From an uncultured Clostridiaceae bacterium (GTDB lineage Bacteria > Bacillota > Clostridia > TANB77 > CAG-508), in contig CAOKMR010000001.1 of the NCBI GenBank assembly GCA_948469815.1, positions 6,710 to 70,709 of the forward strand: DNA of 64,000 nt, given 5' to 3'. Positions 37,534-58,272 of this stretch are shown piece by piece. The translations under genes and the position numbers were made by a program. Each line of letters begins with the position of its first letter. Within the stretch, counting starts at the first letter, position 1. A model generated the notes under the pieces. It did not search any database and had not been told where the DNA came from. It was given only the letters and a program-made list of their open reading frames with translations.

Positions 37534-39378
37534 GTGCGACGGGCATGTCGTTTAGTTAATCGGTGAAAGTCCGTAGTGGAGGTATACATCGCTAACCACA
37601 TAGTGAAACACAAGCGTTCCATCGTGAGGTGAGACGTGGAGGAAGTGTGTAGCAAAATCTTGGCTCAATGTACAAAAACTTGATATTAAGGCTTGATAAG
37701 AGGGCAAGGCTACTTGTGAAGTCAAAACCCAAAAGATGTGCGTAACCTTACCAAGTAAATCAAGTGAGTAAAAGAGGAAAATTAAACGACTTACCCCGTG
37801 AGGTCTTGCGGACATTAGTAATAGTGGTCGGAAAAGGTTCATCGCAAGAAGTCAGCAGATACCATAGTAGGAAAATTTTTTTTTGAAGGGTTGAACAATT
37901 TGTAGTGTTTCAAACACCAAAATCAGGGGCGAATAATAGTTAGAATGTGTTAATGAGGAGAGTATAGGCGTATCCTAGAGAGTTACTCAAAATCAATAAT
38001 TTATTCGTCATCGAGAAAGGAGAAGGAGAAACAAGCATGGAACTTTTAGAACAAATCTTAGCAAAAGAAAATCTTAACCAAGCATACGAAAAAGTAAAGG
38101 CAAACAAAGGAGTAGCAGGAGTGGACGGAATAACAGTATATGAGGTAGACGAATATATAAAAGAAAACAAAGAAAAACTGTTAAGCCAAATACGTAAAAG
38201 AAAGTATAAGCCACAGCCAGTAAAAAGAGTACAAATACCAAAAGAAAATGGCAAGAAGAGAAATCTAGGAATACCAACAGTATTTGATAGAATAATACAA
38301 CAAGCAATGGTGCAAGTATTAAGTCCAATATTTGAAAAGCAGTTCAGCGATAATAGTTATGGATTTAGACCTAAGAGGAGCTGTGAACAAGCTGTAATAA
38401 AAGCATTAGAATATCTAAATGACGGTTATGAATGGATAGTAGATATAGACCTAGAGAAGTTTTTCGACACAGTTGACCAAGATAGACTAATCAATATCAT
38501 AATGAGAACAATAAAAGATGGAGATGTAGTATCATTGATAAGAAAATACCTAAGTGCAGGAGTAATGGACAAAGGAATAGCTAAAGCAACAGAAAAAGGA
38601 ACACCCCAAGGAGGAAACCTAAGTCCACTGTTATCAAATATAATGTTAAATGAACTAGATAAAGAATTGGAAGCACGTGGCTTGCAGTTCGTTCGTTATG
38701 CAGATGACTGTATCGTAATGGTTAAGAGTGAGAAAGCAGCGAACCGAGTGTTAAGTTCAATAACGAAATTTATTGAAAAGAAACTAGGTTTGAAAGTAAA
38801 TGCAGAAAAGAGTAAAGTAACAAGACCAACACAAACAAAATATTTAAGCTTTAGTTTTTGGAAAGATACAAAGGGAAGATGGAAACCAAAACCACATATA
38901 AAAGCATATCAAAAATTAAAAAGGAAACTAAAAGCATTAACTAAAAGAAATTGGAGCATAAGCCTAGATAATAGGATAAAGCAAATCAATTACTTAGTTA
39001 GAGGTTGGGTAAATTACTTTAGAATTGCAAATATGAAAAATGCCATAGAAGAAATAGACAAACATTTAAGGACACGAATAAGAGTAATAATCTGGAAACA
39101 ATGGAAAAAGCCACAAAGAAAAGAGAAAGCATTAAAGCAACTAGGAGTAAAACCAGATATTGCATATAACCTAGCACATACAGGAAAAGGATATCAATTA
39201 GTAGCAAAAACAGATTGGCTAAAGTTTGCAATAAATAATGATAGGCTAAGAAAAAGAGGTCTGATATTTCTATCAGACCAATATGCTAAAGTACATGTTG
39301 AAATATAAATTGAACCGCCCATTGCCGAACGGCACGATGTGGTGGTGTGAGAGGGAATAAATAAAATAATTATTTATT
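37534..39378 (+). mobile_element. Group II intron (class-C-like, bacterial) inserted immediately downstream of a rho-independent terminator
   Basis: 5' GUGCGAC at 37534 directly after the hairpin ccccTAGG…CCAGGGG+TTTTTT. Internal RT/maturase ORF. 3' region carries D5/D6-like hairpins ending about 39378, just before the convergent HU stop. Boundaries are approximate. Confidence 0.65.
38037..39308 (+). CDS. Group II intron reverse transcriptase/maturase
   Basis: 423 aa. RT motifs through YADDCIVMV, followed by a maturase (X) domain. Confidence 0.85.
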   Translation: MELLEQILAKENLNQAYEKVKANKGVAGVDGITVYEVDEYIKENKEKLLSQIRKRKYKPQPVKRVQIPKENGKKRNLGIPTVFDRIIQQAMVQVLSPIFEKQFSDNSYGFRPKRSCEQAVIKALEYLNDGYEWIVDIDLEKFFDTVDQDRLINIIMRTIKDGDVVSLIRKYLSAGVMDKGIAKATEKGTPQGGNLSPLLSNIMLNELDKELEARGLQFVRYADDCIVMVKSEKAANRVLSSITKFIEKKLGLKVNAEKSKVTRPTQTKYLSFSFWKDTKGRWKPKPHIKAYQKLKRKLKALTKRNWSISLDNRIKQINYLVRGWVNYFRIANMKNAIEEIDKHLRTRIRVIIWKQWKKPQRKEKALKQLGVKPDIAYNLAHTGKGYQLVAKTDWLKFAINNDRLRKRGLIFLSDQYAKVHVEI

Positions 39379-40567: not shown

Positions 40568-41446
40568 ATGAAGTGTTTAGAAACATGTGAAAGAGAAATA
40601 AACAATTTGCAAAACGATATTGAAAAATATTTAAACGAAGAAAATAATGAAATAAAAATATTTAAAGCTATAATAGATATAGTATATACTGAAAATCCTT
40701 TAAAAATTAATTTTTTTGCTTTAGGTATAAGAGAACTTATTAGAATATTTTTACAGCGTAATAGTAGTGATTCTGATATAAAAAAATGTACATGGTATGA
40801 AGATTATATTGAATATGATGCTGAAAACAGAGAAATAATTACAAGAAAACAAAGAATGCTATATTCAATTTATGGTGGATTAAATTTAAAAGATATAAAA
40901 CAAAAGTTGAATATAGATATAGATGATAAAATAAAGCAATTATTGATTATAATTAATAAATTAAGCAAGTTTACGCATATAGAATCTATCACATCTAATA
41001 ATGAATTTATAATGCAAGAAATAAAAGAGATTTTAAAAACATTTAAAGAATTTCTAGAAAAATTATTTAATTTTAGAGAAGAGCTTTCTTATGACTATGA
41101 AAAGTTTATTTCTGAATTAATAACAGATAAGTTTGCAAATGATGTTATAGAAGATCTTGATATAAAAGCTACTCATTATGAAGATGCATGTTTCTATATT
41201 GAGGATATAAAAATATTATCAATCGATTCAAGTAATATACATTTATCTGTGAGTGGAGACACAAGTGCTACTCTTCAATATGGTTCTAATTCTGATAATA
41301 AAATTGGTGATGGGATTAGAATTTATAAAAATTATTTAACTAACGTTAATATTTCTATTGCAACTGATAAAGCATTTGATACAAATTTTTTAAATGCAAA
41401 AATAGAAGATGTAAAGATAATAGATGATAGAGAAGACATAATGTGA
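40568..41446 (+). CDS. Hypothetical protein
   Basis: 292 aa. No recognised motif. Confidence 0.3.
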   Translation: MKCLETCEREINNLQNDIEKYLNEENNEIKIFKAIIDIVYTENPLKINFFALGIRELIRIFLQRNSSDSDIKKCTWYEDYIEYDAENREIITRKQRMLYSIYGGLNLKDIKQKLNIDIDDKIKQLLIIINKLSKFTHIESITSNNEFIMQEIKEILKTFKEFLEKLFNFREELSYDYEKFISELITDKFANDVIEDLDIKATHYEDACFYIEDIKILSIDSSNIHLSVSGDTSATLQYGSNSDNKIGDGIRIYKNYLTNVNISIATDKAFDTNFLNAKIEDVKIIDDREDIM

Positions 41447-43727: not shown

Positions 43728-44660
43728 ATGGGTAAAGAAGAATTAAATAAAAATAGAACACAAAAAGAATTGATGTCAGAATTTGAAAGATATTTAGAGG
43801 AAAATTATCCAAACACTGAAGACAAAAATACACAAAAGGCATATTTAAGTGATGTTAATATGTTTTATAAATACTTTGAAGAAAATTTTAGTGAAATAAT
43901 AATTTCCTTTTCTAGAGCTGATATTATAGAATATAAAAATTATATGTTAAAAGAAAAGGGTTATAAGGCTACAACAATTAATAGAAAATTAGCATCATTG
44001 TCTGTATATGAAAATTTTTTAATAGAAAAAGGAATAAAAGACGTAAAATCAATAAAAGAACAAGACTTTTATAAAATAACTGTACCTTACATTACAGCTG
44101 ATATGTTACCAAGAAAAGCAATGAAAAAAGTAGAACTATTGGCTGGAAAAACTAATATTAGAGATCAAGTAATATTAGTTTTTATACATGAAGGGGGATT
44201 AAGAGTCTCTGAAGTAATAAATATACAGTTAGAAAGAGATGTTAATTTAGAAATGCGTAAAATTACTATATGGGGAAAAGGAAATAGAATTAGAGAAATT
44301 ATTATAACTAATGCTATGTTTGATATTTTAGAGGAATATTTACCTATAAGGGATAAACAATTGGCTGGAAGAGAAAATAAGTACTTAATTATAAGTAACA
44401 AATCAGTAACTACAGGAAAAAGAATTGATAGGAGTATGGTTAATAAAATGTTAGAAAAGTATTGTAAAAAAGTTAATGAAAATAGTATTAATCCACATAT
44501 TTTTAGACATGACTTTGCTACAAATAAATATGAAGAGGGGTATACTGATATGATGTTAAAAAAGTCATTAGGTCAAACGTCTAATGCCACAGATAGATAT
44601 ATACACCCAGGTGGTGAGAAAATCCAAAATGAAATACGACAAAATTCGACAAAAAAATAA
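43728..44660 (+). CDS. Tyrosine recombinase (phage integrase / XerD-like)
   Basis: 310 aa with an N-terminal SAM-like domain. The C-terminal catalytic region includes …RHDFATN… and a tyrosine near the C-terminus (DRYIHPG). Confidence 0.7.
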   Translation: MGKEELNKNRTQKELMSEFERYLEENYPNTEDKNTQKAYLSDVNMFYKYFEENFSEIIISFSRADIIEYKNYMLKEKGYKATTINRKLASLSVYENFLIEKGIKDVKSIKEQDFYKITVPYITADMLPRKAMKKVELLAGKTNIRDQVILVFIHEGGLRVSEVINIQLERDVNLEMRKITIWGKGNRIREIIITNAMFDILEEYLPIRDKQLAGRENKYLIISNKSVTTGKRIDRSMVNKMLEKYCKKVNENSINPHIFRHDFATNKYEEGYTDMMLKKSLGQTSNATDRYIHPGGEKIQNEIRQNSTKK

Positions 44661-44749: not shown

Positions 44750-45442
44750 ATGGTTAAGGTACTTATTGCTGAGGATAATATGTCAATCAGTATACATCTT
44801 TCAAATATAATTAATTTTACAAAATCTGCTCAGGCAATATCTATTATTAATGATGAAACAAAAGTCTATGAAGCAATAAAATTATTAGAACCTGAAATCG
44901 TTATACTTGATTTAAAATTACAAAAGGGAGATGGATTTGAGATTTTACGAAAGATAGAAAATGATATTGCAATAAAAACAAGAGTCGTAATATATTCAGA
45001 AGAAACAAATTACATGGCTAGAGTGTTGGAATTCAAGAGTGTAGAGAAAGTATTTAATAAAATTGAATCTTATGAAGATGTTGGATTAGAAATTCAGAAA
45101 ATAGCAAAAAATATTGCTAATAAAGAATTGGATAAAAAAATTTACGAAATACTCTTTAAAATGGGATTTAGAGCTGAACATAAAGGAACACAACTTATTA
45201 AAGAATGTATTGAAATGTCAACTAAAGAAAAACAAGAAAATTTAAAGACAATTTATGAAAAATTAGCAGAAGTAGAAGAAAAAAAATCATATACAATTAA
45301 AGCAGATATACAGGTAGCAGTTAATAAAATGTGGCTATATGGTAATAAAGAAAAAATAAGAAAGTTTTTACGATTAGGTGAATATGAAAAGCCAAGTCCT
45401 AAATGCGTTGTTTCTATGGTAAGGTATTATATTGAGCAGTAG
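44750..45442 (+). CDS. Spo0A-like regulator (degenerate receiver plus Spo0A C-terminal DNA-binding domain)
   Basis: Receiver-like N-terminus (VLIAEDN…IVILDLKL). The C-terminal part (GFRAEHKGTQLIKECI…TIKADIQVAVNKMW) resembles Spo0A_C. Confidence 0.45.
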   Translation: MVKVLIAEDNMSISIHLSNIINFTKSAQAISIINDETKVYEAIKLLEPEIVILDLKLQKGDGFEILRKIENDIAIKTRVVIYSEETNYMARVLEFKSVEKVFNKIESYEDVGLEIQKIAKNIANKELDKKIYEILFKMGFRAEHKGTQLIKECIEMSTKEKQENLKTIYEKLAEVEEKKSYTIKADIQVAVNKMWLYGNKEKIRKFLRLGEYEKPSPKCVVSMVRYYIEQ

Positions 45443-45543
45443 GACATAGACTATCATTATTTTTAATTTAAATTATAATTTTCAATTGTAAATCAAAAAT
45501 CTCATTCGTTAAGAATGAGATTTTTGAATATTAATAAAAAATA

Positions 45544-46071
45544 CTACCAATTACCTTGTAATGCTATTTTGCTACCAGCAGATGCTTGACTGAAACCTGT
45601 ATCAACAAAGCCATAATCAACGCCATCTCCTGAAACACGAACCCATTGACCTTTTGTACTTTTTACATATGTAACTTTCATCCAATCACTGTGTTTTTGT
45701 CCTGGTGTGCAAGTATCTGTAGCTACATACATTCCTGCTGCTACTGTTCCCCAACGATCACTATTTTGACCTGCTTTATAAACAGGCATACTTCTTCTCA
45801 TACGATAAATTTTATAGTCTTTACCATTAATATTCTCTATTGCATAAGGAAGCTGATCAATACCTGCATGGTAAAATGTTTGATCGGAGATTATTCCAGA
45901 AGTTATTACACCACTTGAGTTTCTAAATGCTACAACTTCATTATGTTCTGTATTACAAATACAAAGTTCATTAGGGTATAATCTTCCTACTATTTTGTTT
46001 GATAGTATAGGATATTCTCTTATTATATAGGTATTTTTAGTATTATTTATACCAATATAAATTTGACTCAT
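45544..46071 (-). CDS. Hypothetical protein, paralog of 53939-54517, with SH3b-like C-terminus
   Basis: Shares …GxVAAGxxVAT…WVRVxGDGxxxGFVDTG…GNW with the paralog. Flanked by the terminator hairpin aatctcattc/gaatgagatt. Confidence 0.3.
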   Translation of the reverse strand: MSQIYIGINNTKNTYIIREYPILSNKIVGRLYPNELCICNTEHNEVVAFRNSSGVITSGIISDQTFYHAGIDQLPYAIENINGKDYKIYRMRRSMPVYKAGQNSDRWGTVAAGMYVATDTCTPGQKHSDWMKVTYVKSTKGQWVRVSGDGVDYGFVDTGFSQASAGSKIALQGNW

Positions 46072-46302
46072 AATTTTCTCCCTTCTAAATATGTAAAATT
46101 TTACTAAATCTGATCAGATGATTAGTATGGTGATATTATATCTATTCTTTTAGAATTTAATTGTAAAGTTGATTAAAGTGTATAAAAATTTAATATTAGA
46201 TATAACTATCTTAAAAATACTCTATTTTTCACTATAAAACGCAATTTTTTTTAATATGTTGCTATTTTTATTGTAAATTACGATTAAAAAGGAGGAAATC
46301 TT

Positions 46303-46776
46303 ATGGAAGAAGAAATGTTAAAAATATTTAATAAAACAACTACTACAATAAGTGGCATTTGTACAATACTCACATCAATATTTGGAATTGAATGGGTATT
46401 GTTTGCAGGATATTTACTATTGAATCTAGTGGATTATTTTACAGGAACTATAAAAGCTAAGGTAAAAAAATCTGAGAGTTCTAATAGAGGATTAGTTGGG
46501 GTAGTTAAAAAAATTTGTTATTGGATTCTTATAGGGGTATCGTTTTTTATATCATATTTACTAGTACAATTAGGAAATAAAATTAACATTAATTTAGAAT
46601 TTATCATGCTTTTTGGCTGGTTTACTCTTGCTTGTCTAATAATAAACGAGTCTAGAAGCATTATAGAGAATCTAATTGAAATTGGTATAAATGTTCCAGA
46701 ATTTCTAAAAAAAGGATTAGAACAATATCAAAAAATAATAGATAACACAATAAATAATTTAGATAATAAGAAATAA
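46303..46776 (+). CDS. Holin (toxin-secretion / phage-lysis holin family, TcdE/UviB-like)
   Basis: 157 aa with three TM helices. …VLFAGYLLLNLVDYFTGTIKA… resembles that family. Confidence 0.55.
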   Translation: MEEEMLKIFNKTTTTISGICTILTSIFGIEWVLFAGYLLLNLVDYFTGTIKAKVKKSESSNRGLVGVVKKICYWILIGVSFFISYLLVQLGNKININLEFIMLFGWFTLACLIINESRSIIENLIEIGINVPEFLKKGLEQYQKIIDNTINNLDNKK

Positions 46777-47354
46777 TTGCACTTTATGAATGGTATATAA
46801 TATTTCTGTTACTGTGTGAAAAAAGTATCTTTTTTTATCTTTTTCGATATTTACATAATTTATACTATATACTAAATATAATAACTGTGATGGTGAAAAG
46901 GCAATATATTAGTAAGTAAATTAAAAATATGATATTGATTATGAGCCTTAGTCTTACCTTTAATTGAGTTCTAGTCATGAATAAGTAAAGAATTAAAACA
47001 TTTATTTTTATAAATCTTACACTTAAATTCAATTAAAATAACAATTTTCTTATGTACAAGGGGCGAAATTCGTCTCTTTTTGTATTTACAAAAAACAGCT
47101 ATAATCACTTTAGAAGTTTATACAGAGTTTTTATTTTTATATGTTACCGAAAAAGTTACTTCAATACTTTTAATATAATAATTAATTTACATGATTTTAT
47201 AAAAATTAAACGATAAAAAATTTTAGGATTGAAATTATGTAAAGAATTTTACACTATTATACATTAGTATACATTTTATTACATTCGACACCATTTTTCA
47301 TACATAACTGTAAGAATATAGTAAAATCACTAAAAAGAATCAAAAATGTAGGAG

Positions 47355-48125
47355 GTGAATATGAAAAAAGGTATTGATATATCATATCACAATGGAAGTG
47401 TAAATATGTCAGAGGTGAAGTTAAGTGGAATAGAATTTATTATTTTAAGACTAGGATATAGAAAAAAAGAAAATCATATTGATAAGAAATTTTATGAAAA
47501 TTACAATAATGCTATTCAACAAGGAATACCGATAGGAGTATATATATATTCTTATGCTCTTAATACAAATGATGCTTTAAAGGAAGCACAGTTTGTTTTA
47601 GATACAGTAAAAGATCTTAAGTTGGAGTATCCAATTTATATTGATATGGAGGATGCAGATAATTATAAATCACAAAATAAAGTAAATTACTCTACTTGTA
47701 TTGATATATGTGAGACTTTTTGCAATTGTATAGAAAATGCTGGTTATTATGTGGGAATTTATGCTAATTTAGATTGGTTAAATAATAAAATAAATGACAG
47801 TAGATTAGACAAATTTGATAAATGGGTAGCTCAGTGGTCAAATAGTTGTAAGTATAAAAAGGAATTTGGAATGTGGCAATATTCATCTAATGGAAATATA
47901 TCTGGAATAGCTGGAAAAGTAGATTTAAACTATGATTTGAGAGATTATCCTTCTATAATAAGAAATGCTAAACTAAATTTATTAACTGAAAAAAATAATA
48001 TCTATGTAGTGCAATCTGGTGATACTCTTACTAAAATTGCAAAAAAATTTAATACAAACTGGAAAGAAATCTATAATTTAAATAAAGAAACGATAGGTGA
48101 TAATCCTAATTTTATCCAAATTTGA
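47355..48125 (+). CDS. GH25 muramidase (lysozyme) with C-terminal LysM domain
   Basis: GIDISYHNG, GVYIYSY and IYIDMED fit GH25. C-terminal YVVQSGDTLTKIAKKF…NPNFIQI fits LysM, which appears to stop early. Confidence 0.8.
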   Translation: MNMKKGIDISYHNGSVNMSEVKLSGIEFIILRLGYRKKENHIDKKFYENYNNAIQQGIPIGVYIYSYALNTNDALKEAQFVLDTVKDLKLEYPIYIDMEDADNYKSQNKVNYSTCIDICETFCNCIENAGYYVGIYANLDWLNNKINDSRLDKFDKWVAQWSNSCKYKKEFGMWQYSSNGNISGIAGKVDLNYDLRDYPSIIRNAKLNLLTEKNNIYVVQSGDTLTKIAKKFNTNWKEIYNLNKETIGDNPNFIQI

Positions 48126-48153
48126 CAAAAATTAATTGTTAGGGAGGAATAGA

Positions 48154-48507
48154 ATGGAGGACAAGAAAACAAAAGAGTTTATATTGAATGAATTATCAAA
48201 GTTTAGTTTTAGAAAGTATACAAAAGGATTCAGATACCTTAATGAAGCAATATATATGTGCATAAAGGATGCTGATGCTATAGAAAATTTACATAAAAAT
48301 GTGTTCCCTTTTATTGCAGAGAAATATAAAGAGAAATCGCCATCAAATGTTAAGTGGTGTATAGAACAATCTGTAAGGACTATGTATAATAATACAGAAG
48401 AGAGTAAAATATGTAAATATTTTAATATAGGAGAAAATACAAAACCTAGTTTAAAATCTATTATATATACAGTACTGTGTAAATATGAATGGAATAACAA
48501 TGTATAA
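48154..48507 (+). CDS. Stand-alone Spo0A C-terminal-domain-like protein
   Basis: ATG after AGGGAGGAATAGA. …KGFRYLNEAIYMCI…NVKWCIEQSVRTMY parallels Spo0A_C. Confidence 0.4.
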   Translation: MEDKKTKEFILNELSKFSFRKYTKGFRYLNEAIYMCIKDADAIENLHKNVFPFIAEKYKEKSPSNVKWCIEQSVRTMYNNTEESKICKYFNIGENTKPSLKSIIYTVLCKYEWNNNV

Positions 48508-48640
48508 GATGATTAACTGGATATTAAAAATAAATTGAAATAAAGAATACAAGTGTTAAATGATTAATAAACAAAAGCGAGATTTCAATAATAGTCTCGT
48601 TTTTATTTATAACTGATTCTTTTATAAAAGAGATAAAGTA

Positions 48641-48985
48641 TTAAAAATTAGGAAAATCTTGCTTAAGAAAGAATATAATTTTTGAAATTGACTTAGAATG
48701 AATCTTAATAGTATCAAGAGATTTAAAATAATCGTAAACAAGAGAATTATTAGTCGTACTATTTAACAATATTATATTTTTATAATCATCAAATTTAAGG
48801 AATTGTGCTGTAGCAACTACAAATATGTATTGAACATATCTATCTAGTGAAATATTTAAATCAATTAATATGCTATTATCAAATTCATTTAATATAGTAT
48901 CAATAATATCAAATAGATTTTCTTTGCCATGTTTTTGAATAAAATGTTGAAAAAAGGGATATGATAAATCCATAAATAAAAACAC
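48641..48985 (-). CDS. Hypothetical protein
   Basis: 114 aa ORF. Confidence 0.25.
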   Translation of the reverse strand: MFLFMDLSYPFFQHFIQKHGKENLFDIIDTILNEFDNSILIDLNISLDRYVQYIFVVATAQFLKFDDYKNIILLNSTTNNSLVYDYFKSLDTIKIHSKSISKIIFFLKQDFPNF

Positions 48986-49047
48986 CTCTTAATATATAGA
49001 TACTAAGTATATTAAAAAGGTTTCAAAAAGTATAAAAATTATTAAGA

Positions 49048-49392
49048 TTATTGTCCTGAGTGTTTATTTTGTCTCATGAATTTTATTGTATATAATATAA
49101 ATTCTTTTTCTTCCAGAGTAAGATTTGATATTTCGTTTAAAATAATAGAATCCATGCATTCACATTTATTGGAAATGAATTCTTTTAAAATATGGTTTGG
49201 AGTTATATTTAATGCATTGCATATTTTTACTAGAGTTAAACTAGAAGCAATGTTTTCTCCACGTTCTATTAATGAAAGTGTATCAGAAGAAATTTGTGCT
49301 TTCTCAGATAAACCTTCCTGTGTAACCTTTCTATACATTTTGATATGTTCCCCAACAGATTTTTTAAATTTACTTTCATCAATATTTTGCAT
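49048..49392 (-). CDS. XRE-family HTH transcriptional regulator
   Basis: HTH: …VTQEGLSEKAQISSDTLSLIERGEN…. Confidence 0.55.
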   Translation of the reverse strand: MQNIDESKFKKSVGEHIKMYRKVTQEGLSEKAQISSDTLSLIERGENIASSLTLVKICNALNITPNHILKEFISNKCECMDSIILNEISNLTLEEKEFILYTIKFMRQNKHSGQ

Positions 49393-49549
49393 ATACTTCC
49401 TCCTAAACTATTTTATAATTATATCAATTGTAAAAGTAAAAATTAAGATATTATAATACGAATGAAAATATGACAAAAACCGACAATTTGCAACAAAAAA
49501 ACAAATGTGTTAAAATTAAATCGTACTACAATACGAAAAAGGAGAAGAA

Positions 49550-49981
49550 ATGAAAAAAAGTTTGATTTATAATTTACTATCTAATGATAAAAGAATAAAA
49601 AGGTTTAAATATTTTCATTTAGTAGAGGAAAAGACAATTATATGCTTTCTTATGCAGATTGGTGATAAAAGGGAAAATATGCTAAAGAATTTTAAAAGAA
49701 TGTTATATTTAAATAAAAGCATAACAATAACAAAGGTTAATTCTTTATGGAAAAACAATAATATTACCAATAAAGCTAAATCAGATGAAAATAGGGAAAT
49801 AAAAGAGTATGAAAGGTTAAAGGTTAAAATTAAGAAATATATAGAAAAAATTGATTTAACAAATAACAAAGGGATTACTAATGCATTTGAAACTTTAATT
49901 TTATATGAAGAAACTATTAGAAAATTATATATTGATGGAGTAGAAGATATAAAAAATACTGAAGACATTACGAAAATGTAA
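49550..49981 (+). CDS. Hypothetical protein
   Basis: 143 aa. Confidence 0.25.
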   Translation: MKKSLIYNLLSNDKRIKRFKYFHLVEEKTIICFLMQIGDKRENMLKNFKRMLYLNKSITITKVNSLWKNNNITNKAKSDENREIKEYERLKVKIKKYIEKIDLTNNKGITNAFETLILYEETIRKLYIDGVEDIKNTEDITKM

Positions 49982-50068
49982 GAAATTGTATTTTACTTTT
50001 TTATAAATTTAAAATATAATAATGTGTAACTAAATTTAGGGAAATATTATCTAATAAAAGGGGATTTA

Positions 50069-51457
50069 ATGGAAGAACTAGTAGAGAAAGTGAAAAATGG
50101 AGATAAAGAAATATACAGAGATCTAATATCAGATATGAAAGAAGAACTATATAGAATAGCTAAAAAGAAAATTAAAAATTCTAATGATATAGAAGATGTC
50201 ATCCAAGAAACTATAATTAATGGATATTTTAAAATAGGACAGTTAAGAAATAACAAACATTTTAGAACATGGATTATAAAAATACTAATTAATGAATGTA
50301 ATCTATTTTACAGAAATAAAAGACACGAAGATGATATAAAAAATAGATATAAAGATGAGTTAGAAACAAAAGGTTTCAAGAATGATTCTGTAGGGTTTGA
50401 TAATCTAATACAAGATTTAAATGATATCGAAAAAAATATTTTTAAATTATATTATGAAGAAGAACAATCTATAGAAGAGATATCTAATATTTTGAAAATT
50501 AATAAAAATACCATAAAAACAAAGTTACGTAGAGGAAGAGAAAAAGTAAATTCTACATATAAGAAGATTATTATGACAGTTGTAATCTTAGCAATTATAA
50601 CAACAGGAATAACATTTGGAAAAGATATAATAAATTACTTAAAAGATATCTTTAATTTAAGCAGTATAGGTCAAAATAACGATGGAATATTGATGGCAAT
50701 AGAGGAAAAAGAATGGATACAAAATATTGAAATGGACTATATAGAGTTAGACAAAGGATATAAAATAAGAATTGATTACTTATTAGTTGATGATATTAAT
50801 ATGTATATGATTTATGACTTGAAATCGGATGAAGATCTGAATGAATATGATAGAATGAGTATAATAGATTTAACCATTAAAGATGAAAATAATAATATTA
50901 TATTTAATAATAAAGATCTAATGGAAGAAACTATAGTTCAATTAGAAGGATGGAAGAATATAGAAACTGAGTCAAACACCAATATAAAAGAGTTAAACTA
51001 TATGATATCAAATGGAAATTTCAATATGAAAAAATTAGAAATAACTTTTTCAAAAGTTATGATTTATAGTAGTAATAATCCAAGCAAAGACAGTAAAATA
51101 ATTAATGAAAATGAAAAGAAGATATATATAGACATAGATGAAAAGTTTATTAATACCAATACTATTGAATATATTACAGAATATGAAGATAATAATGAAT
51201 ATAATATTCAAAAGGCTATAATAACAGAAACAGGTTTTTATGCCATTATAAAGAGTAAAAATATGGATGTAAATTTTACATTAGAAATAGATGAGCATTA
51301 TAAACATAAATGTAGTTATAGGCTATTAAGTTCATATAACAGTGAAGAAATATATTATTATTTGATTTTATCAGATATCAACTTAACAGATAATTATAAA
51401 CAGTTATTATTAAAAAATAAAAATGAAGTTATAAGGTTATATAAAAAGGAAATCTAG
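50069..51457 (+). CDS. ECF-type sigma-70 factor fused to a transmembrane helix and ~270-aa extracytoplasmic domain
   Basis: Sigma region 2 (DVIQETIINGYFKIGQLRN…FRTWIIKILINE) and region 4 (…SIEEISNILKINKNTIKTKLRRGREKV), then a TM helix (IIMTVVILAIITTGITFG) and a large C-terminal domain. Confidence 0.6.
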   Translation: MEELVEKVKNGDKEIYRDLISDMKEELYRIAKKKIKNSNDIEDVIQETIINGYFKIGQLRNNKHFRTWIIKILINECNLFYRNKRHEDDIKNRYKDELETKGFKNDSVGFDNLIQDLNDIEKNIFKLYYEEEQSIEEISNILKINKNTIKTKLRRGREKVNSTYKKIIMTVVILAIITTGITFGKDIINYLKDIFNLSSIGQNNDGILMAIEEKEWIQNIEMDYIELDKGYKIRIDYLLVDDINMYMIYDLKSDEDLNEYDRMSIIDLTIKDENNNIIFNNKDLMEETIVQLEGWKNIETESNTNIKELNYMISNGNFNMKKLEITFSKVMIYSSNNPSKDSKIINENEKKIYIDIDEKFINTNTIEYITEYEDNNEYNIQKAIITETGFYAIIKSKNMDVNFTLEIDEHYKHKCSYRLLSSYNSEEIYYYLILSDINLTDNYKQLLLKNKNEVIRLYKKEI

Positions 51458-51482
51458 GCAGAAATGCCTAGATATTTTAATA

Positions 51483-51911
51483 TTACCAACTATAGGATGT
51501 TAGTTCTATATTTATAGTATCAGAAGAATTACATTTACATTCAATAGAAACATCACTAGAACCAGACAAACCTAAGAATATGTAGTCAAATTTTTTTAAT
51601 GAACCATTTGTAGATATTGTATATTTATTAGTAACTTTACGACTAGCAATGGTTACATATATTGTTACATCGTAAATATTTCCAGATGATGATGTAGACT
51701 TAGCTTCAATAGCCATAAAAGTGCCATCATAGTTTTTAGTTATTGGTCTACTACTACCTTTAAATTGAATAGAACCTGTAGAATAGTAGGCATAAGGTTG
51801 AATACTATATGGACTTGAAGCCTTAACTGGAGTAGAACATATAAATAAATTCACTAACAAGAATGACATTAGTATGCAAGTAGATAATTTCGTAACTAGC
51901 TTTTTCATCAA
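51483..51911 (-). CDS. Small secreted protein (signal peptide)
   Basis: 142 aa. Signal peptide with …VKASS cleavage-like site. Ser/Thr-rich mature part with two Cys. Confidence 0.3.
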   Translation of the reverse strand: MMKKLVTKLSTCILMSFLLVNLFICSTPVKASSPYSIQPYAYYSTGSIQFKGSSRPITKNYDGTFMAIEAKSTSSSGNIYDVTIYVTIASRKVTNKYTISTNGSLKKFDYIFLGLSGSSDVSIECKCNSSDTINIELTSYSW

Positions 51912-52044
51912 TACACCTCCTTTATAAAATTTTAATAAATTATATCAACGAATATATAAATAAATATAAAAAGATAAAAAAAAATAAAATGATAATGAAA
52001 CCTAATAAGAATTTTTTGTATCTAATTAGTAGAAACATTGTGAG

Positions 52045-52761
52045 GTGATAAAGATGGTGAACATGTTAATAGCAAATAGAGATATGTTCAAATTAAAAAA
52101 ATTAGTAAATGAAGTTATTACAAAAAATGAAAATATTAGGATAGCAAAAATAGCAAATAATAAAGAAGAAACAATAAAAATCTTAAATAATGATAATATA
52201 GATGTTATTTTACTAGATATAAATATCATTAAGCCTAACGAAAATCTAATATCAAATATGATAAAAAAAGAAAAGCAGGAAAAATATAAAGATTCTATAA
52301 TGTTAATCACAAAAAATTTCAAAGAATCACAAAAAGTAATAGGAAATAAAATGATATTTGATTACTTAATTGAAGAAGAAGATAGCAATGAGATATTATA
52401 TAAAATTAATAGAATGATTATAAGTAAAGATTTAGAAGGAAAACGAAAGAAAATTATTGAAGAGTTAAAATATATAGGCTATAATATAGAACATGTTGGT
52501 ACTAATTACTTAGCAGATGCAATTATTCAAATGTATTTAAATAGAGGAGCTATGTTAGATAATCTTCAAAAAGATGTATATCCAATAATATCAAAAATGC
52601 ACAATAAACCTATACATAATATAAAATGTGATATTACTAGAGCAACAGAATGTATGTATTATGAATGTGATAATGAAAGATTAAAAAAGTATTTTGGATT
52701 TTATGATGATAAGAAGCCAACAGCAAAGACGGTCATTTTTACAATATTGAATAAAATATAA
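52045..52761 (+). CDS. Spo0A-like regulator (atypical receiver plus Spo0A_C-like domain)
   Basis: Receiver-like N-terminus lacking the usual acidic pocket. The C-terminus (…LKYIGYNIEHVGTNYLADAIIQMY…) resembles Spo0A_C. Confidence 0.4.
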   Translation: MIKMVNMLIANRDMFKLKKLVNEVITKNENIRIAKIANNKEETIKILNNDNIDVILLDINIIKPNENLISNMIKKEKQEKYKDSIMLITKNFKESQKVIGNKMIFDYLIEEEDSNEILYKINRMIISKDLEGKRKKIIEELKYIGYNIEHVGTNYLADAIIQMYLNRGAMLDNLQKDVYPIISKMHNKPIHNIKCDITRATECMYYECDNERLKKYFGFYDDKKPTAKTVIFTILNKI

Positions 52762-52802: not shown

Positions 52803-53861
52803 ATGAAAAAGAAGTTAATTGTAATCATAGTTATAATTTTAATAATAAGTAGTATTATTGGAATAGGAATCATTAAAGGGATAAATGAGGAAAAAGAAGA
52901 TGAATCAAAAAAAGAGATTACTTTTAATCAAGAAAATGAAAAAGTAAAAGACACAAATGCAGAGATAAATGAGTTGCTAGAAAAAAGCGATATTTCTAAT
53001 TATTTACCTAGAGATATATCAGAAATAAAATTAATAAATTACCAAACAGAAGACCAAAAGACAGATATTTATACAGATAGCGATTTAATATTAGAGTTAG
53101 TAAGAATTCTACATAATGTTACATGGACTGAGACAGATGAAAATATAGAATGTTGTTATTTTGGTATTGATATTAAAGGTAAAGATAGTACTACTAGGCT
53201 AGAATTAGAAGCTATACATGTAACCGAAACACAAGAGGAGTTAGGATATATAAAACTAATAAAAGGCAATTTGAAATCTAATTTTACTGTAAATGGTGGA
53301 GCATATTATGAATTATATGGTTTTGAAAAACCAAAGTATTATCTTCATAAAAGTAATTTGGAACTACCTAATAAAGATATATGCTATAAAGCAAAAGAAA
53401 AAGCATTAACAGGTTTAAATGAAAACGAAATAAAAGAACTACAGACAACCATATATGATTATCAATGTATGATGGAGAGTATATTAGGTGAAAGTACAAG
53501 GTTATTAAAAGAGAAAACAAGTTATTATTGGAGACAACAAATTTATGATGAGGTATTTACAGATAATATAACAGGAACAAAAGTGTATAATGGAAATAGG
53601 TTAATAAAAGTATTACAAGAGGTAAAAAAACAGATCGAAATTATAAAGGATGAAGAAACTAAAAGAGATTTAGAGAAATTCTGTAATTTATTGAAAGAAG
53701 GACTTGATGAACATGATATTGAAAAGTGCTTTGAAGCACACGAGATATTACATGATTATAGTATTTGGGTAATAAATTATCCAGTAATGAATCTAATGAT
53801 AGAACCATATGACTGGAGTGCGTTTAAAACATATTTTGGTAAGGCATCTATAATAAAATAA
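52803..53861 (+). CDS. Membrane-anchored hypothetical protein
   Basis: N-terminal TM followed by a 330-aa extracytoplasmic domain. Confidence 0.3.
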   Translation: MKKKLIVIIVIILIISSIIGIGIIKGINEEKEDESKKEITFNQENEKVKDTNAEINELLEKSDISNYLPRDISEIKLINYQTEDQKTDIYTDSDLILELVRILHNVTWTETDENIECCYFGIDIKGKDSTTRLELEAIHVTETQEELGYIKLIKGNLKSNFTVNGGAYYELYGFEKPKYYLHKSNLELPNKDICYKAKEKALTGLNENEIKELQTTIYDYQCMMESILGESTRLLKEKTSYYWRQQIYDEVFTDNITGTKVYNGNRLIKVLQEVKKQIEIIKDEETKRDLEKFCNLLKEGLDEHDIEKCFEAHEILHDYSIWVINYPVMNLMIEPYDWSAFKTYFGKASIIK

Positions 53862-53938: not shown

Positions 53939-54517
53939 TTACCAAGAACCATAAAAAGGTATTTTAGAATAACCTGATGCAGATCGAATGCCAGTATCAA
54001 CAAAACCATGCTTAAATCCATCACCAGTAACTCTAACCCAATTACCAGCAGAACTTTGCACATAATCGATAGCTTTACAATATGGTTTATCTTCTCCAAC
54101 AGTCGAACTATTAGTGGCAACAAGACAACCAGCTGCAACATATCCCCAATGGTGTCCTTTAGCTGTTATTACTTCTTTCTTAGAACGCATTTTATATACT
54201 TTATATAGCTCGTCTTTTCCTGTTTCAGGATTTTTAATATTTGCAGTACCATAAGGGAATTCTTCGCAAAATGTAGCAGAATAAGCTTCTCCAGGAATAC
54301 CACCAGGTAGAGGATATCTGTTTATATCGACAGTAGTTCCAGTAAATACTCCAGCAGAATTCAAGTAATTAATACCAACAAAATCTCCATCTCCTCCATA
54401 AAGAACATAAGCTTCTCTAGGGTTTATTTTGCCAACAAGCTTGTAGTTATTCATTGCATCATAAATATTATATGCTTTGTTAGTTTTATTGATAAGTAGT
54501 TTTAAAAAAAATGCCAT
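53939..54517 (-). CDS. Hypothetical protein, paralog of 45544-46071
   Basis: Shared C-terminal motifs with the paralog (see 45544-46071). Confidence 0.3.
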   Translation of the reverse strand: MAFFLKLLINKTNKAYNIYDAMNNYKLVGKINPREAYVLYGGDGDFVGINYLNSAGVFTGTTVDINRYPLPGGIPGEAYSATFCEEFPYGTANIKNPETGKDELYKVYKMRSKKEVITAKGHHWGYVAAGCLVATNSSTVGEDKPYCKAIDYVQSSAGNWVRVTGDGFKHGFVDTGIRSASGYSKIPFYGSW

Positions 54518-54949: not shown

Positions 54950-55786
54950 TTAGTTTTTATATGTAATTTCTTTTATCTTTTTAACATTATAAATTGCAGA
55001 GGTTTCAGAAATTTCAAAAGAATTTTTTAATACTATATTTGCATATACTTCATGAAGTTCTGTTTTCAAATTATTATTTTTCACTATACTATCTTCAGAT
55101 ATTTCGAGAATTATTGGATATATAAATTTATCATTTTTAAATGATATATAAGTAATTTCTGCAAATAAATAGGTAACATTGAAATCCTCAAGATATGGAG
55201 TTTGGTATCTAATATGTAGATTTGATAATTCTTTTTTATCATTATATTCATTTAAGATAAGTTCTGACAATTCATTTTCTTTTAGTATATATATAGGTGA
55301 ATCGCCATTAATTTTTGCTATGTTAGGAGATGAATTACTAGTAGAATATGAAATTGTACCATTATAAATTAATAAGTCATTTTCTTCTATATCATCAAAT
55401 GATATTGTGCAAGAATTAGTATAACTTAAAATTTCAATATCTAAAGGAGTGTATAGAGTAAGAAAAGTATAGTCAGGGATATCGCAAACAATATGATCAT
55501 TATAAATCATATAGTCATTTTTTATATTTAAAATATTATAATTATATTCTGTGTTACTACCATTATACGATGAAAATATGATTCCTTTAACCTTTTCAGT
55601 ATAGTCTTGAAATGTAATATTTGATATATCTGTATGTGTAGCAACATTATCATTTGGGGTATAATTTGAAGTATCATTAGTATATAAAACGTTATTTAAA
55701 ATTGATTTTAAGGTTACAAAAATACATAATATAATAATGATAAAGATAATAATAATTATTAGTTTTAGTAAATTAAATTTTTTCAT
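54950..55786 (-). CDS. Membrane-anchored hypothetical protein
   Basis: N-terminal TM followed by an Asn/Tyr-rich extracellular domain. Confidence 0.3.
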   Translation of the reverse strand: MKKFNLLKLIIIIIFIIIILCIFVTLKSILNNVLYTNDTSNYTPNDNVATHTDISNITFQDYTEKVKGIIFSSYNGSNTEYNYNILNIKNDYMIYNDHIVCDIPDYTFLTLYTPLDIEILSYTNSCTISFDDIEENDLLIYNGTISYSTSNSSPNIAKINGDSPIYILKENELSELILNEYNDKKELSNLHIRYQTPYLEDFNVTYLFAEITYISFKNDKFIYPIILEISEDSIVKNNNLKTELHEVYANIVLKNSFEISETSAIYNVKKIKEITYKN

Positions 55787-55987: not shown

Positions 55988-57898
55988 TTATAAATAATAA
56001 GCATTGACAGTAGTAGTAATTTTAATTTTTTTATCTGTAACTCTAACATAACCAGTATCAGTTGTTCTAAAAACATCATATGAGATATAATATTCTATAT
56101 TATCATTAATAAATATAGAGTCACTATTTTGTGTGGATGATAAATTATATATTTTACTATCTACATTAGCAACAACATGCCCTTCTGTGCAAATACCATC
56201 TTCAAATGGTTGAGGACTCTTAAACCATACATCAACAATCATGTCATCATATTTTTCACCGTTCTCACCACTTGCTTGAATAGATAAATTTAATTTTCTA
56301 CCTGCATATGTAAGCCTTCTACCAACATTACGTCCAGATTCTAATAAAACAGTTCCGTAGTAATAATCTCTTGGAGATAACTCAGTAACAACAGGAAATT
56401 TATTAGAGAAAATATTTTTATCTATTGTAAAGTTATCATTTATTTTAACATCCGTTTGAAATTGATCAAGATTCCAATTAGTAGGCATTTTAAATCCCAT
56501 ATTGCCTGAATATCCAGAAGAAGAATTGCTAACAAAGCAAGTTGTTGCGTATCCTTTATCCATTACACGTGAACAAACATTTCTAGTTCCATACACACCA
56601 GCTTTGTAATAGGTAGAACCTCCATCAATTGCTTTAAAATAGGGAAGGGCGTATTTTTCTATTTGATTATCAAGCATATCAATATCAACTACAAAATAAA
56701 TTATAGTTCCCTTAGGAATACAATAACTTCTTGCTCTTGAGTATGCTTCTTGAACGTCTTTCCATCCTTGAGACTCTGTAAAGTAGCTTATGCTTGGTTC
56801 ACCATCTCTTTGATATATAGGATAAAATTTTATTCCATTATCTATCATACCTTTAGCTTCATCAAATGCTAACTCTTTTCCTTGATTACCACTGATATAT
56901 CTTCCAACAATAGATACTCCTAAATTTTTCACAATATCTATTCGATTAATTTTACGAATTTCACTATGGATAGTATATGATGTATCGATGGCATTGTAAG
57001 GTCTATCTTGATTACCTGTACTTACTAATAAAGCCATCCAAGTGTTAGTATCGCATATATTTGTTTGCTCTAAAATCATGTCTTTTTGAAACCTTCCTAT
57101 AGTAGAGCCTAAGAATGAATCCCATTTATTAGAATTTATGCCAATATCTATTGGATACCCATTACATACCAATGCATATCTAACAAGTTCTATTGCATCT
57201 TGCTCAGTCTCACTATTAAGACTACCATTACTAGGGACAATAGGTAAACGTGATTTAGTACCATTGCCGAATTTGCCATCTATATTTGAGCCAGTAAATC
57301 CCTCTATCTTTTGAAGCACAGCTATAAGTGATTTATTCATTTCTCTACTATAAATTCCATCGCAAGGTGTTAATCCGATGTAATTTTCATATTTATTATT
57401 AAGTTTTTGTTGAATCTCTCTAATATTACTATTTCCACCACGTACAAGTTTAAATTGATCCATAGAAAGCAATGATTTCATTATATTAAGAGTAACTGTA
57501 GAACTCGTATCTGAGCACCCAGCATCTTTTTTAATGGAAGTAATTGCAGAACCTGTTCCAGAGTAAAAATGATTAGTTATATCATTTGAGCCTATTGAAT
57601 AACCTTTACAGAAACAAGCACCTTGAATAATTCCATATATATTATCTTCTGTTGTATCGTCTGAGGATTGTTGTTGTACACCATTAGGAAATCTTGCTTT
57701 AAATTTTGATGTAGTAGAAGGACCAAAAGAAGTTGATGTAGCTGTAATACCTAATTCTATTTGGAAAGCTCTAAGAAGTGCATGAACTGTACCCCAACCA
57801 GTAATTCCATCAACAACAATATCTTCACCGTATCCTTGTTTACCATGATAAGTTTCGTTAAGCCATTGTTGAGTTTTTTCAACTAATATATCTGCCAT
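55988..57898 (-). CDS. Peptidoglycan hydrolase-like protein: three PG_binding_1 repeats plus a C-terminal glycoside-hydrolase-like (DUF1906/GH25-like) domain
   Basis: Repeats of the …L(N)..Y…DG..G..T..AL..FQ… pattern. C-terminal …VGRYISGNQGKELAFDEAKGMIDNGIKFYPIYQ…. ATG chosen after GAAAGAAGG. No signal peptide. Confidence 0.45.
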   Translation of the reverse strand: MADILVEKTQQWLNETYHGKQGYGEDIVVDGITGWGTVHALLRAFQIELGITATSTSFGPSTTSKFKARFPNGVQQQSSDDTTEDNIYGIIQGACFCKGYSIGSNDITNHFYSGTGSAITSIKKDAGCSDTSSTVTLNIMKSLLSMDQFKLVRGGNSNIREIQQKLNNKYENYIGLTPCDGIYSREMNKSLIAVLQKIEGFTGSNIDGKFGNGTKSRLPIVPSNGSLNSETEQDAIELVRYALVCNGYPIDIGINSNKWDSFLGSTIGRFQKDMILEQTNICDTNTWMALLVSTGNQDRPYNAIDTSYTIHSEIRKINRIDIVKNLGVSIVGRYISGNQGKELAFDEAKGMIDNGIKFYPIYQRDGEPSISYFTESQGWKDVQEAYSRARSYCIPKGTIIYFVVDIDMLDNQIEKYALPYFKAIDGGSTYYKAGVYGTRNVCSRVMDKGYATTCFVSNSSSGYSGNMGFKMPTNWNLDQFQTDVKINDNFTIDKNIFSNKFPVVTELSPRDYYYGTVLLESGRNVGRRLTYAGRKLNLSIQASGENGEKYDDMIVDVWFKSPQPFEDGICTEGHVVANVDSKIYNLSSTQNSDSIFINDNIEYYISYDVFRTTDTGYVRVTDKKIKITTTVNAYYL

Positions 57899-58272
57899 AA
57901 AAAAACCTTCTTTCAATTATTAAATTTTTAAATTCATTATATTTCTGATCAGAATTTTAATAAATATTAATAATATTATAAAGAATGTATTATAACAAGA
58001 TTCAGAAAAAAGATAAATGTGGTGTTTTATTGTTGATAGTTGATTTATTAATAAAATCTAATTATTTAAATATTTAAACTAAAGGATGATGATGTAAAAA
58101 AAGTATTAGCTAGATATAATGGAACAAATAATGATGCTACAGAATATGGTATATCAAACTTTGAACTATATCAGATATTTGAAAAGTATAATAAGTCTAT
58201 TAGAGGGGAATAAATTGACAGTATAGTAATAAAGTAATATAATTCATAAGAGAAAGGTTAGAATGGTGAACC

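Follow-up and report, generated by a model that had tools for sequence, protein, structure and literature searches.

Mobile genetic elements (MGEs) that carry the effector domain of Spo0A have already been reported: Spo0A_C (PF08769) is enriched on the MGEs of gut Firmicutes (Jiang et al. 2019, PMC6907783), and gut phages carry receiver-less or truncated spo0A homologues for which mimicry was proposed, their function being untested (Schwartz et al. 2023, PMC10294663). Matches to PF08769 on phages and on integrative conjugative elements (ICEs) are currently taken as sporulation genes with which MGEs manipulate dormancy, and our literature search found no paper testing the function of any MGE-borne Spo0A_C protein. 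Spo0A itself reads G2, C4 and G5 of the 0A box TGTCGAA, with all DNA-contacting residues kept in C. difficile Spo0A, and its isolated DNA-binding domain binds targets without phosphorylation (PMC3485338). Host Spo0A sites also control the phages phi29 and Nf (PMC2731898). Here we analyzed a stretch of 64,000 nucleotides (hereafter the window) of contig CAOKMR010000001.1 from an uncultured Clostridiaceae bacterium. Three of its proteins, P1, P2 and P3, have a Spo0A_C domain and belong to a regulatory and cell-wall module of an ICE in this uncultured gut Clostridia bacterium. An earlier reading of the window without database searches (the sequence-only reading) had taken them for Spo0A mimics that could bind 0A boxes and couple the element to host sporulation. 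Our analysis points to element-specific regulators of the module, a reading that we favour while giving it an even chance, and to a module that is possibly gated by host Spo0A.

The identification of three Spo0A_C-like genes was borne out by the hidden Markov model (HMM) search. All three exceed the Pfam gathering score for PF08769 (25 bits): P1 (44750-45442, plus strand, 230 amino acids) with 41.4 bits, P2 (48154-48507, plus strand, 117 amino acids) with 52.6 bits and P3 (52045-52761, plus strand, 238 amino acids) with 44.8 bits. A six-frame scan of the window found no fourth Spo0A_C copy. P1 combines a receiver (Response_reg, 39.4 bits, with a gathering score of 30.2 bits) with the effector domain and is an orphan response regulator with no kinase nearby; public assemblies hold a 100% identical protein. 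P2, the last gene of a muramidase operon, is a stand-alone Spo0A_C fold with no receiver domain and PF08769 as its sole Pfam domain, and its ATG lies 7 nt past a GGGAGG ribosome-binding site. P3 couples its effector domain to a degenerate (pseudo-)receiver that stays under the gathering score (21.4 bits), and an alternative ATG at 52054 is possible. The AlphaFold model of P2 (24 homologues) has a predicted local distance difference test (pLDDT) score of 92. The only PDB structures matching this model are those of the six-helix helix-turn-helix C-domain of Spo0A, free (1FC3) and DNA-bound (1LQ1), with a template modelling (TM) score of 0.8-0.9, a root-mean-square deviation of 1.6-1.9 Å and 23% identity.

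Despite the shared fold, none of the three proteins would be classed as a Spo0A orthologue, because they score only 44.5 (P1), 39.6 (P2) and 45.7 bits (P3) against the NCBIfam equivalog model TIGR02875, whose cutoff is 200 bits. We aligned them with B. subtilis Spo0A, using a reference identical to PDB 9PHZ and 1LQ1. The motifs of the fold are retained, namely KG..Y(L)..AI, KP(T/S) and a helix aligning to Spo0A 227-240, which we take to be the sigma-A-contacting region. The recognition helix tells a different story. The Spo0A stretch SRVERAIRHAIEVAW aligns with YTIKADIQVAVNKMW in the recognition helix of P1, with SNVKWCIEQSVRTMY in P2 and with HNIKCDITRATECMY in the recognition helix of P3. 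E213, R214 and R217, which we take to be the base-specific residues of Spo0A in 1LQ1 and which Zhao et al. reportedly described as base-reading in the Spo0A-DNA structure in 2002, are replaced in all three proteins, by K/A/Q in P1, K/W/E in P2 and K/C/T in P3. The family resemblance noticed in the sequence-only reading thus held for the fold and failed at the DNA-reading residues, and these substitutions, together with the TIGR02875 scores of 40-46 bits, speak against its suggestion that the proteins could be mimics binding 0A boxes.

The receivers differ from each other in how far they depart from the pattern of Spo0A orthologues (D10/D11, D56, T86 and K108). The receivers of both P1 and P3 had been described as atypical, which is correct for P3 but not for P1. 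P1 keeps a canonical pocket, with the acidic pair E8-D9, the phospho-acceptor D54, S83 and K104, and these residues are conserved over 31 homologues of 43-100% identity. The P3 pocket reads N-R/D/T/E, with N-R at the acidic pair and E in place of K108. The similarity of the P1 receiver to that of Spo0A is not above its similarity to VraR, MtrA or Spo0F. In sum, P1-P3 have the same effector fold as Spo0A of B. subtilis and C. difficile, and P1 also has the same receiver-plus-effector architecture with an intact phospho-acceptor pocket. Unlike Spo0A, P2 is receiver-less, the P3 receiver is degenerate, E213, R214 and R217 are replaced, and the genes stand as three copies on an ICE beside lysis genes and not at a chromosomal spo0A locus.

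To place the three domains in a wider family, we searched 1.84 billion representative proteins with a profile built from the three C-domains and the P2 homologues. This returned 5155 clusters at E<=1e-3 and 654 at E<=1e-10, which occur so far in metagenomes, metagenome-assembled genomes (MAGs) and phage or MGE families. PHROG families 24603 and 37855 both match the paralogues (phrog_24603 matches P2 with E=1.3e-7). The best 150 matches all score >85 bits, compared with 45 bits for B. subtilis Spo0A with the same profile. Among these 150, 27 are stand-alone domains, about 70 carry an N-domain that is a receiver or resembles one, 37 show other N-terminal extensions and 17 are tandem (2-4 copies); the canonical pocket is present in about half of the receiver-bearing members. 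Across 185 related domains, the equivalent of E213 is K in 121, positions 214, 215, 217, 218, 221 and 222 are hypervariable, and only 12 have the E-R-R triad of Spo0A. Judged from these residues, the pattern is that of a DNA-binding family diversifying in specificity. The paralogues, like most of the at least 650 clusters, lack the residues that we take to read the 0A box, so sporulation hijacking may be overestimated when MGE-borne sporulation genes are counted, and what the Spo0A effector fold would represent instead is a general, fast-diversifying family of mobile-element transcription factors. The searches also retrieved database proteins of 390-1000 amino acids with 3-8 tandem Spo0A_C-like domains (P0091, P0092, P0093, P0096, P0100, P0101 and P0123, the last with eight matched stretches), an architecture of which we know no description.

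For comparison across relatives we used loci from 14 species-level genomes (MAGs) and further metagenome contigs (L001, L010 and others below); the related loci are all from uncultured gut Clostridia MAGs. The P2 homologues form about 50 clusters of proteins of 109-135 amino acids, save for one partial and one 181-amino-acid protein, all from metagenomes or MAGs, and the KWCI of the recognition helix is invariant in this family. The P2 family has no match in 72,556 plasmids. A phage collection gave matches of 24-29% identity only, in four unannotated faecal phage records, and 2.9 million viral (IMG/VR) contigs hold only distant relatives of 25-39% identity, with no 0A-box promoters on the contigs carrying them. 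P2 resembles the truncated spo0A genes of phages and other MGEs (PMC10294663, PMC6907783, PHROG 24603/37855) as a receiver-less effector on a mobile element of gut Firmicutes, but it differs from them in lying on an ICE, in sharing only 24-29% identity with the phage examples found, and in belonging to a conserved module with several paralogues, a sigma hybrid and lysis genes. Whereas mimicry was proposed for the phage proteins, the recognition-helix substitutions argue against it here.

In the reading that we favour, the module would be a layered transcription circuit composed of an XRE repressor, a membrane-fused extracytoplasmic function (ECF) sigma factor and the three Spo0A-fold proteins. 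Each of these three would be a transcription factor specific to the element and would have an operator of its own. Lacking a receiver, P2 would be constitutively active; it is made from the muramidase operon and may feed back on the TGT(A) boxes that lie upstream of this operon with a 10-bp phase. P1, an orphan with an intact receiver, would be phosphorylated by a host kinase, whereas the pseudo-receiver of P3 would make it independent of phosphorylation. The sigma hybrid would stay at the membrane until regulated proteolysis, the probable means of its release, sets it free in response to an extracytoplasmic signal, possibly from the cell wall. As a second input, host Spo0A~P at exact 0A boxes would tie expression of the module to the stationary-phase or sporulation decision. 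The output would be either local remodelling of the wall for conjugation, or lysis.

The second input is suggested by a class of promoters with exact 0A boxes. The window has five exact boxes against 1.8 expected. For the promoter statistics, we counted exact boxes in 12 non-redundant sequences totalling 261 kb. On the strand of the P2 gene, TTCGACA occurs 19 times against 4.1±2.0 expected (0 of 300 simulations reached 19), and on the other strand twice; nine of the 21 sites are intergenic, while intergenic DNA makes up 14% of the total. TTCGACA separated by N21 or N31 from a -10-like TA[ATG]AAT was found at nine sites, all on the gene strand, where 0.4 were expected. These sites lie at 47284-47327 in the window, 11465 in L001, 9064 in L011, 768/778 and 7942 in L014, 3506 in L021, and 392 and 8279 in L022. 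Spacings of 20, 22, 30 and 32 between TTCGACA and the -10 gave zero sites in the 261 kb, and boxes with one mismatch were not enriched at N21/N31 (19 against 14.4 expected). Several of the promoter sites have a second box 10 bp off. In L011, L014 and L022, a promoter of the same type heads an operon that ends in a P2 orthologue; the spacer between holin and muramidase genes in L011 could not be aligned with that of the window.

In the window, the candidate GH25-P2 promoter has its -10 hexamer TAAAAT at 47322-47327 (plus strand), 31 nt downstream of the 0A box. The box itself (TGTCGAA, 47284-47290) is part of a candidate operator on the minus strand (47247-47290), in which four TGTA boxes with a 10-bp phase adjoin it. 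This phased array is unique in 260 kb and appeared in 0 of 60 simulations. L010, L035 and L032 keep phased TACA boxes, the ACACCATTTTT block and the -10, which reads TGgTAATAT at the conserved position in L035 and L032. Tandem 0A-like boxes, TACGACAaaaTTCGACA at 44635-44651 (plus strand) with a 10-bp period, lie about 100 nt upstream of P1, inside the 3' coding end of a recombinase gene. They are also found in L010, have no -10 hexamer at N21/N31, and their function is uncertain. Other motif searches were less informative. The ACACCATTTTT block has no second copy in the window, enriched 8-mers in the intergenic regions of the module were A/T-rich words only, phased TGTNNNA arrays were absent, and a search relaxed to TGT[AC] returned only the one site in the window. 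Scanning for sigma-70 promoters gave 162 sites, with 157 in shuffled sequences, and the result served only as a positional aid. The maximal-order Markov z-score for TTCGACA was uninformative because the sub-words of TTCGACA are themselves enriched. Readings of the box context by eye as ECF-type -35/-10 elements or as a sigma-H promoter were rejected, as the spacings do not fit.

Separately, in three related loci the leader before a short sigma-like open reading frame (ORF) that opens the P2-ending operon (about 8150-8236 in L014, 8960-9049 in L019 and 8440-8506 in L022) has a CCTCCA(T) anti-Shine-Dalgarno sequence that could pair with the GGAGG ribosome-binding site, possibly providing translational control.

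The most parsimonious reader of the exact 0A boxes is host Spo0A~P, provided that the host has spo0A; the case is weakened by the non-conserved box of the window. A rival explanation of the module built on this, which we consider doubtful, holds that Spo0A~P switches on the muramidase-P2 operon and other promoters of the element at stationary phase or sporulation onset, and that the paralogues mainly compete or heterodimerise with Spo0A; in a variant of it, P1 could drain phosphate from host kinases. The promoter class speaks for such gating with its exact boxes on the gene strand, with spacings N21 and N31 one helical turn apart, which would suit an activator in contact with RNA polymerase, and with the second box at +10 at several sites. 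The pocket of P1 is moreover intact and conserved, and there is no kinase on the element. As in phi29 and Nf (PMC2731898), canonical 0A boxes in mobile-element promoters could read the developmental state of the host, but here the element is an ICE with Spo0A_C-fold proteins of its own, and occupancy of the boxes is only predicted. Against this explanation, no promoter of this class occurs within 10 kb in six of the 12 lineages examined, the box is not kept in the nearest relatives of the window, and the P1 receiver has no special similarity to that of Spo0A. The coupling of element and host that the sequence-only reading had suggested receives indirect support from the promoter class, while its route through mimics looks unlikely; coupling by host Spo0A~P at 0A-box promoters would be a different route. 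In any case, the promoter class provides a concrete hypothesis for how an ICE could sense the Spo0A state of its host.

The two ideas may also be combined. The 0A-box promoters would let host Spo0A~P time the holin and muramidase and drive P2, which with P1, P3 and the sigma hybrid would extend the Spo0A network with new specificities. We put this combination forward tentatively, as it seems to us improbable on balance. If it is true, the module would be a mobile, modular sub-circuit of development by which conjugation or lysis is coupled to the host's decision on sporulation, and the Spo0A effector fold would be a widespread, diversified family of mobile-element transcription factors (hundreds of clusters, with tandem multi-domain forms among them) that is not specific to sporulation.

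Mimicry proper would have one or more paralogues, especially P2, bind 0A boxes of both host and element and activate or block sporulation without the phosphorelay, as put forward for gut phages by Schwartz et al. (PMC10294663). The retained fold and helix aligning to Spo0A 227-240 are compatible with it, as is the ability of the isolated Spo0A domain to bind without phosphorylation (PMC3485338). This ICE family is also enriched in exact 0A boxes, and in the window as well as in L011, L014 and L022 one of them precedes the P2 operon; the KWCI helix of P2 is invariant, the box likewise. However, none of the three base-reading residues is retained: the charge at 213 is reversed and both arginines are lost; P1, P2 and P3 differ from one another at these positions; and the family is hypervariable there, as expected of diverging specificities. 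In the closest relatives, the box at the P2 promoter is TTCAACA, TTTGACA or CAACACA while the rest of the promoter is conserved. Because the recognition residues are changed and vary within the family, simple 0A-box mimicry appears unlikely, and we rank it below gating by host Spo0A.

Several points weigh against our preference for element-specific regulators. Every DNA specificity that we assign to P1-P3 is deduced from residues. The element does carry exact 0A boxes, one of them before the operon of P2 itself, and P2 could read a 0A-like site. The 0A box of the window is changed in its three nearest relatives (TTCAACA, TTTGACA and CAACACA), with loss of the central CG, and the phased TGTA array was found only in the window's own lineage. 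No common operator motif was found upstream of the other genes of the module. Finally, the gene of the VirD4-type type IV coupling protein (T4CP) appears split into two ORFs (17851-18660 and 18746-19699, covering profile positions 44-130 and 213-448), perhaps by a frameshift or as a pseudogene, so this copy of the ICE may be transfer-defective.

The other regulator of the module is the ECF sigma hybrid (50069-51457, plus strand), which consists of sigma regions 2 and 4, a transmembrane helix (about residues 166-185), a DUF4179 juxtamembrane segment and a BAS1627-like, beta-rich extracytoplasmic domain. Its residues 1-160 are an ECF sigma core (Sigma70_r2 36.9 bits, Sigma70_r4_2 35.9 bits; TIGR02937 68.8 bits with a cutoff of 42.9), and its top PDB sequence match is SigW. 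DUF4179 is marginal (30.0 bits against a gathering score of 30.1), with precomputed Pfam matches in homologues. In the structural model (pLDDT 81), a single helix (146-195) runs from region 4.2 through the membrane and is followed by an all-beta domain of about 250 amino acids, whose best fold match in the PDB is the extracytoplasmic domain of B. anthracis BAS1627 (3FBQ, E=1.3e-8, 270 columns). The homologues include 39 full-length clusters of 33-99% identity, which rules out that the fusion is a frameshift artefact. The fusion of a sigma factor to a transmembrane helix and an extracytoplasmic domain, which the sequence-only reading had called unusual in Firmicutes, is thus borne out as a fusion by the HMMs, the model and the homologues.

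In the ECF30 anti-sigma factors RsiV and BAS1627, DUF4179 is the part that comprises the transmembrane segment and the amphipathic helix (PMC6066255). The hybrid shares with the SigV-RsiV and BAS1627 systems this type of transmembrane and juxtamembrane segment and a sensor of the 3FBQ fold. Unlike RsiV and BAS1627, it has in the model no cytoplasmic anti-sigma domain, because there is no room between the end of sigma region 4 (about 160) and the start of the transmembrane helix (about 166); the hybrid is therefore a membrane-tethered sigma factor. RsiV binds lysozyme, whereas the sensor of the hybrid resembles that of BAS1627, whose ligand is not known. In the reviews consulted, sigma/anti-sigma hybrids are cited only from Proteobacteria (IutY) and Actinobacteria (ECF48/52/53), and IutY (ECF243) is activated by Prc/RseP proteolysis (PMC8999054). 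The architecture of IutY (sigma factor, C-terminal transmembrane helix, sensor) is present in our protein, and the fused arrangement common to it, IutY and ECF48/52/53 would by analogy imply regulated intramembrane proteolysis, in which site-1 and site-2 proteases release the sigma factor. In contrast to these, our hybrid is from a Firmicute and is ICE-borne, and with its ECF30-type sensor it appears to be a new variant of such hybrids. It extends the idea of the one-component sigma/anti-sigma hybrid to a Firmicute ICE and links it to cell-wall hydrolases.

The cell-wall part of the module is a phage-type lysis cassette composed of a holin, a GH25-LysM muramidase and an Rv2525c-like hydrolase. 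The holin (46303-46776, plus strand) belongs to Phage_holin_4_1 of the TcdE family (PF05105, 101 bits) and in all loci >3 kb is no more than 7 kb away from the P2 orthologue. The muramidase (47355-48125, plus strand, with a probable ATG at 47361) matches Glyco_hydro_25 with 104.7 bits and LysM with 39 bits, in agreement with the holin-lysozyme pair recognized earlier, and a terminator-like hairpin (47058-47078) separates the two genes. The third member is a glycoside-hydrolase-like wall hydrolase of 642 amino acids (55988-57916, minus strand; PF08924 123 bits, PG_binding_1 repeats 40 bits), found in most loci. Neither hydrolase has a signal peptide, which explains the presence of the holin.

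A comparable clostridial sigma-holin-endolysin locus is the pathogenicity locus (PaLoc) of C. difficile, whose TcdR, TcdE and TcdL serve non-lytic export. Both loci group an alternative sigma factor with a holin of the PF05105 family and with endolysin-like proteins, outside a functional phage. Unlike in PaLoc, the sigma factor of the module is an ECF hybrid and not a TcdR-type group 5 factor, no toxin or bacteriocin cargo was identified, and both hydrolases look catalytically complete.

The remaining genes of the module surround these. At its left edge is a XerC/D-like tyrosine recombinase (43728-44660, plus strand; Phage_integrase 86 bits plus a SAM-like N-domain), whose XerC/D matches stay under the cutoffs and which is truncated in L010. 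A conserved protein of 175 amino acids (45544-46071, minus strand, weak SH3_3 match) is divergent from the holin, and its orthologues adjoin the holin in L001 and L010. It has a paralogue of 192 amino acids (53939-54517, minus strand; matches in L010 and L021); the two have a C-terminal sequence in common, with the conserved motif WVRV(S/T)GDG..GFVDTG, and are assigned to no family. Two XRE repressors had been proposed for the region. One of them (49048-49392, minus strand) does match HTH_3 with 35.4 bits and is kept in L010, L035, L012 and L020, but the other, u114 (48641-48985, minus strand, 114 amino acids), has no helix-turn-helix match, nor any other match in Pfam, PHROG or NCBIfam, and is syntenic in L010 and L035. 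The sigma gene is preceded by u143 (49550-49981, plus strand, 143 amino acids, no significant family, syntenic in L010 and L035) and followed by sec142 (51483-51911, minus strand), a small secreted protein of 142 amino acids with an N-terminal signal-like segment that is syntenic in L001, L010 and L035. Beyond P3 lies a protein of 352 amino acids with an N-terminal membrane anchor (52803-53861, plus strand, no family, orthologues in L001 and L010), and 3' of the large hydrolase gene a membrane-anchored protein of 278 amino acids (54950-55786, minus strand; orthologues at 2e-147 in L003 and 7e-167 in L010).

Most of this arrangement recurs in the relatives, and the grouping of the three Spo0A-fold proteins with the sigma hybrid, the holin and the two signal-less hydrolases is kept on ICEs of more than 14 uncultured Clostridia species. 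Recurrent neighbours of P2 are the PF05105 holin, the Rv2525c-like/PG_binding_1 hydrolase and, directly upstream, GH25-LysM, whose stop codon abuts or overlaps the P2 start in nine of 14 distinct contexts. One or two receiver-Spo0A_C paralogues, an XRE protein, the 175-amino-acid protein and an ECF sigma factor (fused, or as a short sigma-like ORF) also recur, as do ICE markers near the module (a Gp3-like recombination directionality factor (RDF), DUF6076, DUF5697, PcfJ/K and recombinases). For instance, L035 retains the order holin-GH25-P2-u114-XRE-u143-sigma-sec142-P3 at 63-87% identity, and L043, whose P1 is 46% identical, retains all three paralogue types and the sigma hybrid, with no histidine kinase nearby. 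Orthologues of P3 are present in L001, L003, L010, L013 and L020. Because the same neighbours recur across lineages, and because P2 is absent from plasmids and only distantly related in viral contigs, the module is, by gene content and order, a conserved part of an ICE family and not a recent prophage remnant. That a decaying prophage landed in the ICE, leaving integrase, XRE protein, holin, endolysins and phage-type regulators without a present role, is very improbable: prophages typically carry genes such as those for the tyrosine recombinase, the XRE protein, the holin and the two endolysin-like enzymes without signal peptide, the paralogues match PHROG 24603 and 37855, and both recombinase and P1 are truncated in L010, but the ORFs of the window are all intact, the gene set recurs at 45-97% identity across many species-level lineages and always in an ICE-type context (RDF, DUF6076, DUF5697, PcfJ/K), no phage structural genes were found in the ORFs scanned, and the P2 family has only relatives of 25-39% identity in the 2.9 million viral contigs and of 24-29% in the phage collection.

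The ICE spans from about 2.1 kb to past 64 kb of the window, which has a G+C content of about 25%. Window bases 1-2052 are host DNA with pyrB and an S11 D-Ala-D-Ala carboxypeptidase gene. The latter (1276-2052, minus strand) adjoins the ICE boundary, matches generic DacA/DacD/PBP5 models only and has lost its N-terminal third (about the first 110-135 profile positions); it is the probable integration target of a serine recombinase. Its description as a sporulation gene in the sequence-only reading is presumptive. The junction at the truncated S11 gene recurs in L029, an independent metagenome assembly, and in L030. The element encodes an HTH_36 protein, a TraG/VirB4-like ATPase, a type IV secretion system (T4SS) pilin, a sortase, SpaA-type adhesins, the VirD4-type coupling protein, a Gp3-like RDF, DNA methylases, a group II intron reverse transcriptase, the tyrosine recombinase, DUF6076 and at least two serine recombinases. 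The features that define an ICE are thus present: an ATPase of the T4SS, a coupling protein, a recombinase along with an RDF, and an insertion into a chromosomal gene. The earlier placement of the module on a mobile element is confirmed by this gene set. No relaxase was identified among the ICE proteins scanned, and neither Pfam nor PHROGs detected capsid, portal, terminase or tail genes in the window ORFs scanned.

A few further genes of the element were noted. The serine-recombinase ORFs at 61294-62940 and 62897-63268 overlap at the right end of the window, and the right ICE junction lies beyond base 64000. The group II intron reverse transcriptase/maturase lies at 38037-39308 (RVT_1 160 bits, GIIM 71 bits). 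The protein at 40568-41446, and more weakly that at 8910-9359, has pP_pnuc_1 and pP_pnuc_2 nuclease domains with no pPIWI gene seen nearby, and could be a defence or orphan nuclease gene. Finally, Amidoligase_2-like and class-II glutamine amidotransferase-like ORFs stand side by side at 26418-27952, with a Rad50-like ATPase (24683-26356) on one side and the methylase genes on the other.

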